From: Gloeobacterales cyanobacterium
Lineage (GTDB): Bacteria > Cyanobacteriota > Cyanobacteriia > Gloeobacterales > PMM-0068
NCBI GenBank assembly: GCA_038245785.1
Contig: JBBRSB010000052.1
Span: 1 to 12,680 of the forward strand
DNA length: 12,680 bases
Direction: 5' to 3'
This document shows, in pieces, positions 2,213 to 12,680 of this stretch (the stretch's first letter is position 1; each line of letters opens with the position of its first letter). The notes below the pieces were generated by a model. That model was given only the letters and a program-made list of their open reading frames with translations, did not search any database and had not been told where the DNA came from. A program made the translations under genes and the position numbers.

Positions 2213-2299
2213 GCAGAACAACCCGGTTGGAGCGGACTTGCCAAGTTTATCGGTGTTGTGGCGAAGGTTATCGGTCGCCGCTCAACCGGAACGTTATGC
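2213..2299 (+). mobile_element. attC: attC site of cassette 3 (87 bp)
   Basis: R'' GCAGAAC at 2213-2219; GCGGCAGAAC is the exact complement of the cassette start GTTCTGCCGC (1301-1310). Arms ccggttggagcgg ... ccgctcaaccgg. R' GTTATGC at 2293-2299. Confidence 0.9.
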
Positions 2300-2414
2300 G
2301 GATTCCAAGTCGGCCAAACCAACGAAATAGAGGGATTCTTGCTATCTAGGAATCCATGTAAACGCCCTCATGGGGTGTTATGCGGACAGCAATCCGCATA
2401 AACAATAGTTAGGC
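2293..2414 (+). mobile_element. attI: ORF-less attI-like element embedded within array 1
   Basis: The left part gttatgcgga..tcggccaaaccaacgaaatag resembles attaggcgga..tctacctaatcaaccaaatag (11014-11050). The right part GTTATGC(2377)-ggacagcaatcc-GCATAAA-caata-GTTAGGC(2408-2414) has the same layout as 173-209 and 11055-11091. Confidence 0.7.
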
Positions 2415-2424
2415 GATTTCATCC

Positions 2425-3021
2425 ATGCGCGCAGTAATCTTCGACATCGACGGCACTCTCATTCACTCCAATAAAATCGATGACGATACGTACGCCTCTG
2501 TCGTTCACGATGTACTGGGACCTGTGCAACTCAGAAAGTCTTGGAGCCACTACAAAAACGTTTCTGGTTCCGGAACCCTCCTTGAAATTCTTGGTGACAA
2601 CAACATCCAAAATACTGCGGCTGTGCTGCGTGCCGTTGAGGAGGAATTTGTAGCTAGAATCTCCAGTCACATTGAAAACCACGGACCGATCATAGAGGTG
2701 CCAGGAGCAAAGGATTTTGTAAGTAGACTGGCGAGTTCAGCAGACTGCCAAATCGCCTATGCTACTGCCGGATGGTTTGCATCTGCTCGGATAAAATTGA
2801 AATCATCGCAGTTTCCAGTCGATGGGATACCCCTAGCGTCGTGCAACGATCACATCGACAAAGTCGCAATCATGACCCACGCGCTCAAACAACTCACTGC
2901 ACCGTTTGAATCAATTACATACTACGGAGACGGCGCGTGGGACAAGTCTACAGCCAGCGCGCTGGGTTGGAACTTCATCCCTGTGGGTGAGAAGCTAAAT
3001 GGTCTCCGGCACTTTCGTTAG
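2425..3021 (+). CDS. HAD-superfamily hydrolase, gene cassette
   Basis: Motif I FDIDGTL, motif II AT, motif IV YGDGAWD. It begins just after GTTAGGC (2408). Confidence 0.9.
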   Translation: MRAVIFDIDGTLIHSNKIDDDTYASVVHDVLGPVQLRKSWSHYKNVSGSGTLLEILGDNNIQNTAAVLRAVEEEFVARISSHIENHGPIIEVPGAKDFVSRLASSADCQIAYATAGWFASARIKLKSSQFPVDGIPLASCNDHIDKVAIMTHALKQLTAPFESITYYGDGAWDKSTASALGWNFIPVGEKLNGLRHFR

Positions 3022-3023
3022 TC

Positions 3024-3050
3024 ACCTAACATAGCCCCTGAGCCGGACGG
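3024..3050 (+). mobile_element. attC: Truncated attC (left arm only) after the HAD gene
   Basis: ACCTAAC-atagcccctgagccggacgg resembles the left arms of the other attCs and 12538-12565. There is no complementary arm and no GTT before the next ATG (3084). Confidence 0.65.
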
Positions 3051-3083
3051 ACGTAAAATGGAAAGAACCCAAACCTATTTCAT

Positions 3084-3500
3084 ATGAGTGAAACTGTCTA
3101 CATTGAAACCAGCATCTTGGGCTACCTTACTGCTCGACCAAGCAGGGATCTTGTTGTAGCTGCAAATATTGAGGTAAAGATGGAGTGGTGGGACACACGC
3201 CGCAGTAGCTTTTACCTCTACACTTCCCAAGCAGTCGTGAGAGAAGTCTCCCAAGGAGACACTGAACTCTCATCTCGACGCCTAGAAATCCTTCGCGATT
3301 TTTTGTTAGTAGACTTGAACCAATCGGTACTTAATTTAGCAGAGCAATTTTTGGAACGCAGTAACCTTCCCGCAAAAGCTGATGTTGATGCTGTTCACAT
3401 TGCCAATGCTCAGATTCAAAGGAAACTGTCAGCGATCAGCCTTGACTTTGGATACGAGTTGCCGATTCTTTTTACACCATATGAACTTCTTGGAGGTTAA
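3084..3500 (+). CDS. PIN-domain (VapC-like) toxin, apparently with an internal in-frame deletion
   Basis: VYIETSILGYLTARPSRD, YTSQAVVRE, DAVHIA and ILFTPYELLG match a PIN family common in cyanobacteria. The usual LLTWNCKH segment after DAVHIA is absent. Confidence 0.8.
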   Translation: MSETVYIETSILGYLTARPSRDLVVAANIEVKMEWWDTRRSSFYLYTSQAVVREVSQGDTELSSRRLEILRDFLLVDLNQSVLNLAEQFLERSNLPAKADVDAVHIANAQIQRKLSAISLDFGYELPILFTPYELLGG

Positions 3501-3502
3501 TT

Positions 3503-3730
3503 ATGTTTCAGGATGAGATTGTAGAAGAAATTCATAGAATTCGCGAAGAGTACTCTCGATCATTCAATCATGACTTGAAAGCAATCTTTGCTGATTTGCA
3601 AAAGCAGCAAGCTGAAAGTGGGAGAGAAGTTGTGAGTTTGTCGCGAGAACCTGGTCTAACAACACGGTGGAGCGGACGGGCGCGAGATCTTGGCGAGGAT
3701 GCAAAAGATGTTAGCCACCGCTCAACGTAG
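3503..3730 (+). CDS. Small partner protein of the PIN toxin (putative antitoxin); its C-terminus reads through the attC
   Basis: MFQDEIVEEIHRIREEYSRSFNHDLKAIFADLQKQQAESGREVVSL is typical of the small genes that follow this PIN family. It starts 2 nt after the PIN stop. Confidence 0.75.
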   Translation: MFQDEIVEEIHRIREEYSRSFNHDLKAIFADLQKQQAESGREVVSLSREPGLTTRWSGRARDLGEDAKDVSHRST

Positions 3731-3739
3731 CCGTTATGC
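3654..3739 (+). mobile_element. attC: attC site ending the TA cassette (86 bp); last clear attC of array 1
   Basis: R'' GTCTAAC at 3654-3660, arms acggtggagcgg ... ccgctcaacgt, R' GTTATGC at 3733-3739. Confidence 0.85.
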
Positions 3740-9601: not shown

Positions 9602-9628
9602 AATCTCCTCTGCACAGGGGAGATTTTT
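9602..9628 (+). terminator. Hairpin between convergent genes; probable intrinsic terminator
   Basis: AATCTCCTC-tgcaca-GGGGAGATT followed by a T-run, between the stops at 9582 (+) and 9628 (-). Confidence 0.65.
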
Positions 9629-10446
9629 CATGCGTCTTGCCCTACGGGTCCTACGGCGCTCTCAGAGGACAGTCGATGGTATGCAAATGTTCCTCTGACA
9701 CTATTAATGAAGAATATAAGGAACAAGACAGCCGCCGTCACTGCCCCTGCTCTGGACGCTAACGTGTCCAACAGTTGCGGCTGTGAAAACTGGTGCATCT
9801 CATAAAGAATAAATAAACACAGTCCCGCAGTTGCAAAAACCTTTGAGCGGCGTTTGACTCCCCATGCAACCACACCAAACAACAACACCTCAAGGTAAGC
9901 CCAGATGTCGATTGTTCCGCTACCCAACAGGAGAATAAGTGCGACGAATAGGGATTTAACTACGGTGAGGAATACGGCAGCCCAGAAGCCTTGATTAGAG
10001 GTTGAGACGGCGGCTGGTAGATCAACTATCTTGGGCCAGAACCAATAGCCTATGTCCGTTTCGGGCGACAGTCGATGAAAGGCAAAGGTGCCTCTTACTC
10101 CGTTAATGTAGAAGACGAGGAGAAGGAAAGCGTATATGGGCAGTGACACTAGCGGAGTCGTTTGAGGTACTGAAATCGGGTACGCCTCCGCAAAAATATA
10201 TAAACATAGCCCAGCGATAGCAAAGGTTCTTGAGCGACGTTTGATCCGCCATGCAATCACGCCAAACAAAACCGTATACAGATAAGCCCCAGAGCTGAAC
10301 GGACATTGATTGATGAGTGCGACTATGGCTGGCATTACGGCACAAGATACGGCGGACCAGAAGCCTTGATCAGAGGCGGAGACTGCACCTGGTGCATCAA
10401 CGATCTTGGGCCAGAACAAATTCCCTTTGTTCGTTTCGATAGTCAC
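9628..10446 (-). CDS. Hypothetical multi-pass membrane protein made of two tandem ~125-aa repeats
   Basis: FWPKIVD..AVS.S.QGFW.AV, LFGV.AW..KRRS..FA.AGLCL and IN.VRGTFA.HRLS.E each occur twice. GTG start. Confidence 0.8.
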   Translation of the reverse strand: MTIETNKGNLFWPKIVDAPGAVSASDQGFWSAVSCAVMPAIVALINQCPFSSGAYLYTVLFGVIAWRIKRRSRTFAIAGLCLYIFAEAYPISVPQTTPLVSLPIYAFLLLVFYINGVRGTFAFHRLSPETDIGYWFWPKIVDLPAAVSTSNQGFWAAVFLTVVKSLFVALILLLGSGTIDIWAYLEVLLFGVVAWGVKRRSKVFATAGLCLFILYEMHQFSQPQLLDTLASRAGAVTAAVLFLIFFINSVRGTFAYHRLSSESAVGPVGQDA

Positions 10447-10467
10447 AACAAATTTCCCATGCTTGAT

Positions 10468-10480
10468 GCATAACGTTTGA
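10468..10480 (-). mobile_element. Probable attC right-end remnant (R') upstream of the repeat membrane gene
   Basis: The minus strand reads TCAAAC-GTTATGCA, identical to the end of the cassette-1 attC (905-918), about 20 nt before the start codon. Confidence 0.5.
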
Positions 10481-10742
10481 ATTCAATTGAGGAATAGCCA
10501 TCGGCTGGAATGAATTGTGCATTTACCTGATGTACTTACAGTTCTCTCAATCAAGTATTCCCAAGGCACTCTGGAATCATATGTTTTTCTAGTAAAGACA
10601 ACAGCTGATAATTCTAGAAGTATGTTGCCAAAGTCAGTCCAATATCCGCTCTGCGATCAATCTGCCTCACTCAACATTGGCACTCTAGAGCATGATAAAC
10701 CAGTGAGACATGCACCATATTCACTTTTACACCTCAATTAAG

Positions 10743-10882
10743 TTAATGTGTATGCCGTTTATCGTGAAAAGGATGTAGCAGCGAATCCACTGCACATAGG
10801 TTTCTTCAGTGCGGTAGGAGTAATGTTTGGCACGAATGGCATCGCGCACTTGGTCAAGAAGCTTTTTGGATGGAGTTTGAAT
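10743..10882 (-). pseudogene. intI: Integron integrase 5' remnant (N-terminal domain only; no ATG, frameshifted)
   Basis: Manual translation gives IQTPSKKLLDQVRDAIRAKHYSYRTEETYVQWIRCYILF, then HDKRH after a 1-nt frameshift. This is the hallmark IntI N-terminus (LLDQVR..IR.KHYS.RTE..Y..WI..YI.FH.KRHP). ATT stands at the expected start, no catalytic domain follows, and it is divergent from an attI and cassette array. Confidence 0.9.
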
Positions 10883-10974: not shown

Positions 10975-11091
10975 ATTAGGCTGACAATTTCCACCTAGTC
11001 TTCCCAGGAGCTGATTAGGCGGACGAATTTCTACCTAATCAACCAAATAGGGAAGATATGCAGAAAAGTTCAGTCTAAACAGTAGTTAGCC
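10975..11091 (+). mobile_element. attI: attI site of the decayed integron, with three inverted box pairs
   Basis: ATTAGGC..ACCTAGT (10975-10999), ATTAGGC..ACCTAAT (11014-11039), GATATGC..GTCTAAA (11055-11079), then the core GTTAGCC (11085-11091), which complements GGCTAAC at 11778. It lies between intI and the first cassette. Confidence 0.8.
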
Positions 11092-11105: not shown

Positions 11106-11783
11106 ATGAAGATTCAGTTCGACAACACCATAAAAGCTGGTGACATACTCACATCGCTGACTATAGCGCTCTCTGTGATAGCTCTCGTTCTGTCACTGGC
11201 AAAGGATCGTGAAATCAAAACGGCGGATCAGGGAAATAAGATCCGAAGTGCTGCTGCAAGTGCAATCGTTAAGCTCGACCGCTGGCAGAGTGTTCAATTG
11301 TCCCTGTACCAAGAGCTTCAACCTTCTTTTGTAGAGACGAGCGAATTGCTGGCGCAGAAGTACGATGTTGTGGTTGCCAGAGATAAGTTCTGGCGACAGG
11401 TTAATGAAGAACGAACACGGATTTCTCATCAGGTGCTAGAAGAACAGCTCGGCACAGCCTACCTGGACATCCTTTCTCATTTTCCCGCCGCAAAAGTTAA
11501 GTATGTTGAATCTTTTACAAAGCTCGCAGCTGTCGAAGATGAAGTTTCGAATGAGTTCTTAGGCGGATCTGAACAGGAGATCTTAAATCTAGAAGATAAG
11601 CAGGCAAACTATTAGACGGCTGTCCTTGGAAATGCCTTTCGGGCGCAAGCGAAAAAGAGTTCCTCGGAACTAAAGAAGAAGTCCAAAGATGTCATTGCAC
11701 CCGTACGAAACTATCTTTTGAAGGTAATTGAGTTGCCTGATGAAAAGATCATCAATGCTAGTCGCAGCAACCGAGACGGCTAA
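11106..11783 (+). pseudogene. Cassette gene (N-terminal TM, helical) interrupted by an in-frame TAG at 11613-11615
   Basis: The frame stays open after the TAG (TAVLGNAFRAQAKKSSSELKKKSKDVIAPVRNYLLKVIELPDEKIINASRSNRDG) to a TAA at 11781-11783 inside the attC R'' GGCTAAC. Total length is 226 codons. Confidence 0.8.
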
Positions 11784-12254: not shown

Positions 12255-12543
12255 CCTATTCGAAGTACCCAAGATACAGACCATTGAGATCACAGATGAT
12301 ACTTTGTCTGTCGATCTATCTGACGGTCGCACTATTTCTGTCCCGCTGGCATGGTATCCGCGTCTCTTGCATGGTTCAGTGGAAGAAAGAAATAGCTGGC
12401 GGTTAATTGGTAGTGGAGACGGAATCCATTGGAATCAACTTGACGAAGATGTCAGTGTCAAGAACATAATCCTTGGGCAATCATCAGGGGAAAGTCAGAA
12501 ATCATTCCAACGATGGCTAAACGAGCGTCAATCAACGGTCTAA
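12235..12543 (+). CDS. DUF2442 domain protein (putative TA partner)
   Basis: LSVDLSDGRTISVPLAWYPRL....EERNSW.LIG.GDGIHW..LDEDVSV. It overlaps the DUF4160 gene, and its stop lies in GTCTAAC. Confidence 0.88.
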   Translation: MTSLTVDLFEVPKIQTIEITDDTLSVDLSDGRTISVPLAWYPRLLHGSVEERNSWRLIGSGDGIHWNQLDEDVSVKNIILGQSSGESQKSFQRWLNERQSTV

Positions 12544-12630
12544 CATAGTCCCTGAGGTGGACGGGAGTCAAGAGCAAACGCTGAACTTCTCTTCCTATCT
12601 TCCTAATTGCATTACAGGGATTATTAGGGC
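12538..12630 (+). mobile_element. attC: Degenerate attC after the DUF2442 gene
   Basis: R'' GTCTAAC (12538-12544) followed by atagtccctgaggtggacgg. A possible partner arm CAGGGATTATTAGG (12615-12628) lacks the GTT. Confidence 0.5.
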
Positions 12631-12680
12631 GCAAGAAATCTGTCTATTGTTAAACGATGAAGTCTCAATTCGGTCTCAAC

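Follow-up and report, generated by a model that had tools for sequence, protein, structure and literature searches.

A 115-nt stretch in the cassette array of a Gloeobacterales cyanobacterium (2294..2408, + strand) is very probably a truncated multi-box attI that has been joined, at one of its accessory boxes, to an intact attC. The window analysed here is the whole 12,680-nt contig C52; the assembly to which it belongs has 255 contigs and totals 5.0 Mb. It carries argS and other housekeeping genes (Pfam search) and a cassette array that runs from an attI-like site at 191-209 to its last attC at 3654-3739. In integron models, attI is fixed beside intI and cassettes alone are mobile. The junction, for which uncut native homologues were found, shows how the greater part of an attI can become separated from its integrase. 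On balance, we lean towards the reading that the 3' end of an attI was cut at an internal GTT box, likely in an off-target IntI crossover, and that it likely arrived at the head of a composite cassette.

The junction and the attI fragment

Upstream of the junction, the attC of cassette 3 (attC3, 2213..2299, + strand) is intact. A covariance model trained on 20 attC of the genome, with attC3 held out, gave it 36.3 bits (E 3e-7); the attC sites of the window score 34-55 bits on the model. Its bottom strand folds into one hairpin, and its R'' pairs at 10/10 positions with the start of cassette 3 (1301-1310). The crossover lies at G2293^T2294 (+ strand), where the R' of attC3 is also an accessory box of the attI fragment. 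The exact 10-mer repeat described earlier, GTTATGCGGA, was confirmed at 2293-2302 and 2377-2386. As GTTATGC stands directly behind 7 of the 32 listed attC of the genome, this repeat is less improbable than it appears. Cassette 3 holds an inverted gene encoding an HTH_3 and Clp_N fusion (1425-2090, - strand), with its own TTGACA promoter match at 2147-2118.

As in a gene-less cassette, the element begins at TTRRRY directly behind an attC, and the ORF list contains no ORF between attC3 and the attI fragment. It lacks the attC-hairpin end (R''-L''-L'-R') of a gene-less attC cassette. The preliminary description had proposed that the element ends in a core rather than an attC hairpin, and this agrees with the model scores: pieces of the element reached at most 7.9 bits on the held-out attC model. 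The best pieces (6.6-7.9 bits, E 2.5-7.5) were at the level of the window's two other attI cores. An attC-like fold over 2280-2414, returned by a structural scan, was rejected, being weak, losing to the attC3 hairpin and having no model match.

By homology, the fragment comprises three box-pair units and the left side of the core. Unit 3 (2293..2319, + strand) consists of the forward box GTTATGCGGA at the junction and an inverse box, GCCAAAC, at 2313-2319. Unit 2 (2333..2363, + strand), which is conserved in the homologue L097 described below, combines a degenerate palindrome at 2333-2355 with TGTAAAC at 2357-2363, a putative inverse box assigned from its spacing. Unit 1 (2377..2402, + strand), a motif type found near intI, carries the second copy of the forward box and an inverted arm that ends in the L box. 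The core itself (2396..2414, + strand) is made up of the L box GCATAAA, a 5-nt spacer and the R box G^TTAGGC, with the crossover at 2408/2409, and its geometry (L box, 5-nt spacer, R box GTTRRRY) equals that of the window sites 191-209 and 11073-11091. The box at 2293, which had been called the first box of the attI, is instead the third from the core.

Similarity to other attI tracts extends along the whole element. Unit 3 aligns in register with 11014-11091 and with the attI on C110, and the 16/21 match reported between 2310-2330 and 11030-11050 was reproduced. The claimed similarity between 2293-2376 and 11014-11091 modestly exceeded shuffled controls, its score being reached by 4 of 1000 dinucleotide shuffles, and no shuffle of 1000 reached the score of the whole element against the attI on C24 or against that on C110. 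These tests covered 25 partly redundant targets, and the single p values are uncorrected. For the 30 nt upstream of unit 1, a profile comparison gave p 0.07-0.09. A profile of the genome's own attI built from 8 seeds did not find the element, and one built from 23 seeds matched only 2363-2411 (E 0.081). Since these profiles miss or barely match it, the element represents a divergent attI subtype in this genome. The two small hairpins noted previously (2333-2355 and 2361-2379) are present as imperfect inverted repeats; stronger inverted repeats are formed by 9-bp arms at 2378-2386/2393-2401 and by 11-bp arms at 2294-2304/2391-2401. A promoter scan of 2050-2450, limited to the sigma-70 consensus, gave no + strand match and none facing the downstream HAD gene.

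Uncut homologues and metagenomic copies

Among 400 genomes of the class, one (G603) contained a match spanning the element (L097). A search of the genus of G603 added a second locus (L108, in G714), and across its order matches were found in 2 of 48 genomes. Both hosts are cyanobacteria of another family. L097 is identical to the element at 95 of 114 aligned positions (83%) and L108 at 83 of 110 (74.8% over element positions 1-111); for unit 3, identity to the counterpart unit was 21/26 in L108 and 19/26 in L097. Neither locus has an attC. L097 runs on upstream into extra box pairs and has a different cassette behind its core, and L108 runs on upstream into more units.

In L108, GTTATGCGGA occupies both places, as in the window element, and the ATG of an intI lies 144 nt from the box. 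The reading frame of this intI breaks off at about 65 codons, and decay has affected the R side of the L108 core. The IntI beside the nearest homologue is only 61% identical to that of the window's genome over 61 residues. The three units of the element are colinear with the intI-adjacent tract of L108, so the upstream accessory boxes expected of an attI are present. The element itself has no intI near 2293, while its homologue L108 does lie beside one. As the exact 10-mer repeat and the 11-bp end complementarity are present in the uncut homologues, both belong to the native attI architecture.

Of the 60 positions preceding the box, 48 are the same in L097 and L108, and the window agrees with either at no more than 19. 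Homology to L097 and L108 thus stops exactly at the internal box at 2293, which strongly supports the earlier proposal of a recombination between an attC and one accessory box of another attI. Judged from these alignments, all attI sequence upstream of the box G is replaced by attC3 in the window. No close copy of the lost upstream tract was found in the assembly (best E 0.004).

The cassette in the internal core encodes a HAD-family hydrolase (2425..3021, + strand; Pfam PF00702, E 2.6e-10). DNA 85-88% identical to it occurs in G058 and G590, in both without the element. In G058 it starts, at the position of 2408, directly behind a full attC in two loci (36.5 and 43.1 bits), and in G590 it lies about 80 nt behind a weaker attC. 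The core G^TT is accordingly an exchangeable cassette boundary, with HAD behind an attC in G058 and other sequence behind the core in L097. Only the left arm of the HAD cassette's own attC is left (3024..3050, + strand), the right arm having been lost; the R'' side of this remnant pairs at 8 of 9 positions with 2408-2416, and it has no match to the attC model. The HAD cassette lacks its own attC in the G058 and G590 loci (L095, L096) too, where a small gene, acetyltransferase-like by eye, lies between HAD and the next attC.

Downstream follow a gene likely encoding a PIN/VapC-type toxin (3084-3500) and a small partner gene (3503-3730), together spanning 3084..3730 on the + strand. Neither gene had a Pfam match. 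Atlas features gave a score of 0.94 to VapC/PIN clusters, with PIN on 25-40% of members, and a related toxin/partner pair lies behind an attC on C38. The two genes are likely a PIN toxin-antitoxin pair fused to the HAD cassette. The first intact attC downstream, which is also the last of the array (3654..3739, + strand), scored 54.9 bits as a training sequence of the model, and would close a putative mobile unit of 2294-3733.

The end of the element was further characterised with a degenerate pattern for its last 33 nt, which carried no intI information. It returned 69 metagenomic loci, 45 of them distinct. At 17 of 42 distinct sites (31 of 62 by locus), the opposite strand encoded the N-terminus of an intI 60-500 nt upstream, and none of the 42 had one in any of three control zones; the 42 are the sites with at least 250 nt upstream, 3 having been dropped. 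By this association, the end of the element is an attI end.

The element was present in one (X2, a biocrust metagenome from an independent study) of the four sequencing runs examined among 21 listed. A 1380-nt contig of X2 starts at 2292, spans the element and the start of HAD, and shows 12 differences over 2292-2600, 8 of them within the element. If colinear, a fit of length only, it would end at 3671, inside the attC at 3654-3739. In two further X2 contigs, which end on 2292-2321, the sequence upstream is different; the sum of their depths (8.4 + 3.4 = 11.8) matches the depth of the long contig. In the loose upstream ends, one mixed 30-nt consensus (agreement 0.7) has a GCCG motif at attC right-arm distance. 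This upstream variation proves a cassette boundary, not movement, as loss of upstream cassettes from an array fused once fits it also. In X12, HAD lies behind an attC-like arm without the element. Word shares of 0.29-0.36 in 18 of the 21 runs had been read as the element; this reading was discarded, the other examined runs holding attC-like or HAD pieces only. Two fused copies are therefore known, both with the same HAD cassette in the core.

Origin of the junction and relation to known systems

We propose the following route. From the homologues, the donor was an intI-adjacent tract of four to five box pairs of about 40 nt each, ending in a core of L box, 5-nt spacer and R box. Within the third forward box, the window copy begins at G^TT; here IntI may have recombined the bottom strand of a folded attC with the box, as double-stranded DNA, rather than with the core. 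Use of a downstream attC, the step we favour, would then release a circle consisting of the attI end, HAD (with or without the toxin-antitoxin pair) and an attC. Such a circle would be an ordinary attC-bearing cassette and could integrate into another array, in which later insertions and shuffling would place a different attC in front of the element. The internal core is predicted to accept cassettes with a compatible IntI, two accessory units being kept. After the fusion there is no sign of a new insertion, HAD occupying the core of both fused copies.

The composite-cassette route is favoured because the assembly holds no close donor tract, the nearest native tracts lie in another family and a single off-target step is needed. 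A different course, possible but in our view less likely, would give the same junction and corresponds to the fusion of two arrays in the preliminary description: an attC of the upstream array crossed over in place with an accessory box belonging to another integron, located on the same molecule or in a cointegrate, with deletion of the intI, fusion of the arrays and an immobile scar as the result. The genome is rich in attI sites and intI remnants, so neighbouring integrons existed, and the varying upstream attC in X2 could be obtained by excision of upstream cassettes. The right flank of the array (3734 on) starts with TTATGC, which is complementary to the L box of the internal attI and thereby gives a weak hint that the attI is in its original place; TTATGC, however, follows 7 of the 32 attC anyway. 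An in-place fusion also requires two co-oriented integrons with dispensable DNA between them, and it is at odds with the closest native tracts being in another family and with none being found in the 255 contigs, although a donor may be unassembled.

The preliminary description had also offered that attI itself travels as a cassette. This was not borne out for the 115-nt piece alone, as both fused copies carry HAD behind it; any movement of the fragment would be at the head of a larger unit. In our estimate it is improbable that the piece is an autonomous attI cassette without a gene, one that attC x core recombination releases as a minicircle, with a perfect 9-11-bp inverted site at the circle junction, and that reinserts on its own. 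The start of the element and its L-side arm are complementary at 11 of 11 positions, HAD also occurs without the element, and IntI1 excises and inserts units of attC, ORF and partial attI (PMC12901181). The complementarity, however, is native to the repeat tract, as seen in L108, HAD is the sole downstream cassette in both fused copies (2/2), and a 115-bp circle would be a strained substrate. Least probable by far is a cassette without an ORF in which the terminal 8-11 nt of an attI took the place of the attC at R'', as in short partial attI of the oxa10/aadA type. The sequence GCATAA followed by ACAATAG^TT does resemble the short partial attI1 ends shown in PMC12901181, but homology to the native tracts L097 and L108 covers all 115 nt and not the last 11.

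An off-target crossover of this type has precedents in earlier studies. Within a 244-bp partial attI2, 20% of the excisions by IntI1 went through an upstream G'TTATGA (PMC12901181), and IntI excises at nearby non-canonical sites, the target consensus being GWT (10.1101/2022.09.11.507474). Cassettes behind a very short partial attI1 were not excisable, and the simple site alone was weak with attC (PMC12901181). Since the present fragment keeps two further accessory units, its competence is predicted to be higher than that of a very short partial attI1.

The closest known counterparts are the Delta-attI-type cassettes from integrons of classes 1 and 2, including aadB-Delta-attI2(-238), in which an attI fragment likewise ends at G^TT inside an array, and for which the upstream G'TTATG of a long fragment was shown experimentally to be usable as a second crossover (PMC12901181). 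In those cassettes a gene has lost its attC at R'' to the fragment, whereas here the upstream attC is intact, the element is gene-less and the G^TT at the accessory box looks canonical. The integrons there are clinical and mobile, and the element comes from an environmental cyanobacterial integron. With attI1 and its DR1 and DR2 (PMC12901181; PMC4792948), the element has in common the L box, the 5-nt spacer, the GTTRRRY R box and upstream accessory boxes. It differs from attI1 in that its accessory boxes form inverted pairs spaced ~40 nt apart, native tracts containing four to five such units, and in that the window copy has no adjacent intI. Insertion at attG or secondary sites and off-site excision (10.1101/2022.09.11.507474) also involve attC and a double-stranded GWT outside the attI core; here the off-target site is the attI's own integrase box, and the product retains a near-complete attI. 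In fused or pseudo-cassettes such as qacE101, and in gene-less cassettes, a non-coding leader without attC rides on the attC of the downstream cassette (PMC8876359; 10.1101/2023.11.21.568050). The leader of the present element, unlike that of the qacE101-type fused cassettes, is a recombination site. Searches of the open-access literature turned up no attI attached, through one of its accessory boxes, to the back of an intact attC. Relative to the class 1 and class 2 partial-attI cassettes, the element is a variant that is gene-less, long and entered at a box.

Provided that the internal core is still functional, an array could also be extended from within, and some attI without intI, together with orphan arrays, would originate otherwise than by integrase loss. 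A tentative extension, to which we give limited weight, is that box-cut attI ends hitchhike with first cassettes across lineages and open a working second insertion point where they land. If so, cyanobacterial integrons would themselves create a route by which intI-less attI and branched arrays arise.

Frequency, look-alikes and genomic setting

An attI stands directly behind only one of the 32 listed attC of the genome; an attC on C5 has a core 401 nt downstream. The genome search gave at least 32 distinct attC sites among 36 covariance-model matches, and the list may be incomplete, as 150 of 684 candidates were scored. A full attC at the box was found at none of the 45 distinct metagenomic attI sites, a soft figure given that the arm-matrix scan used recovers four of the five window attC and misses attC3. 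Short attC-attI fusions were found in none of 401 genomes with a search pattern too short to match the window's own junction. A search for the element in 60 relatives gave nothing beyond one 26-nt match, and the element was not found in viral contigs, in plasmids or, by exact-type pattern, in genome contigs. On present counts, the box-entered attI junction is rare and is not the main source of the genome's many attI sites.

Two candidates for further box entries were rejected. L080, from a Xenococcaceae MAG (G723), carries an attC of 57.6 bits but is a fusion of a different kind: its first 40 nt follow an attC at two other loci of G723, and the native attI shares only the last ~39 nt. On this evidence, L080 is a partial attI in the middle of an array that arose within a cassette and not through box entry. 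L081, the second of two matches in a targeted scan of genome contigs, is a chance match. In G723, the same 40-nt start occurs behind three different attC (L119, L120 and L080); it can pair with the L arm of the G723 attI and possibly represents the right-hand part of an empty attI left at array ends. At L079:653-774, one of the 45 metagenomic sites, an attC left arm is joined to attI unit 1 and core, and the hybrid scores 18.5 bits as an attC.

The genome has one intact intI (C2:301-1266) and remnants on C8, C52, C3, C17 and C9. The remnant at 10766-10870 is the only one in the window; it adjoins the second attI-like site of the window (11014-11091) and belongs to that site, at 11085, not to the internal element. 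Hand-picking gave 24 attI-like cores in the genome, and further ones matched by profile. These cores, at least 24 of them multi-box and of several subtypes, are spread genome-wide (including 191-209 and 11014-11091 of the window), and in most cases neither an intI nor an attC is nearby. Next to the sole intact intI, the attI tract (C2:111-300) is interrupted before its core, and the same interrupting sequence cuts the tracts on C53 and C7. We take this sequence to resemble the end of an IS110-family element.

Several other features of the window and the assembly were observed. The ~140 nt at 12540-12680, which combine an attC left arm with an inverted attI-like box tract, are identical on C8, C30 and C45, and in three copies form a contig end. 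A TAG at 11613-11615, possibly a premature stop, ends the cassette gene at 11106, the frame of which seems to continue towards an attC at 11778. Two small contigs, C81 and C213, carry arrays of near-identical 90-nt attC unlike those of the rest of the genome and may not belong to the bin. Downstream of the intI remnant, a lone cassette-like gene (9628-10520, - strand; 272 aa, with an internal 119-nt duplication) lies behind a weak attC right arm (10468-10520) and ends near the terminator of a ferritin-like gene.
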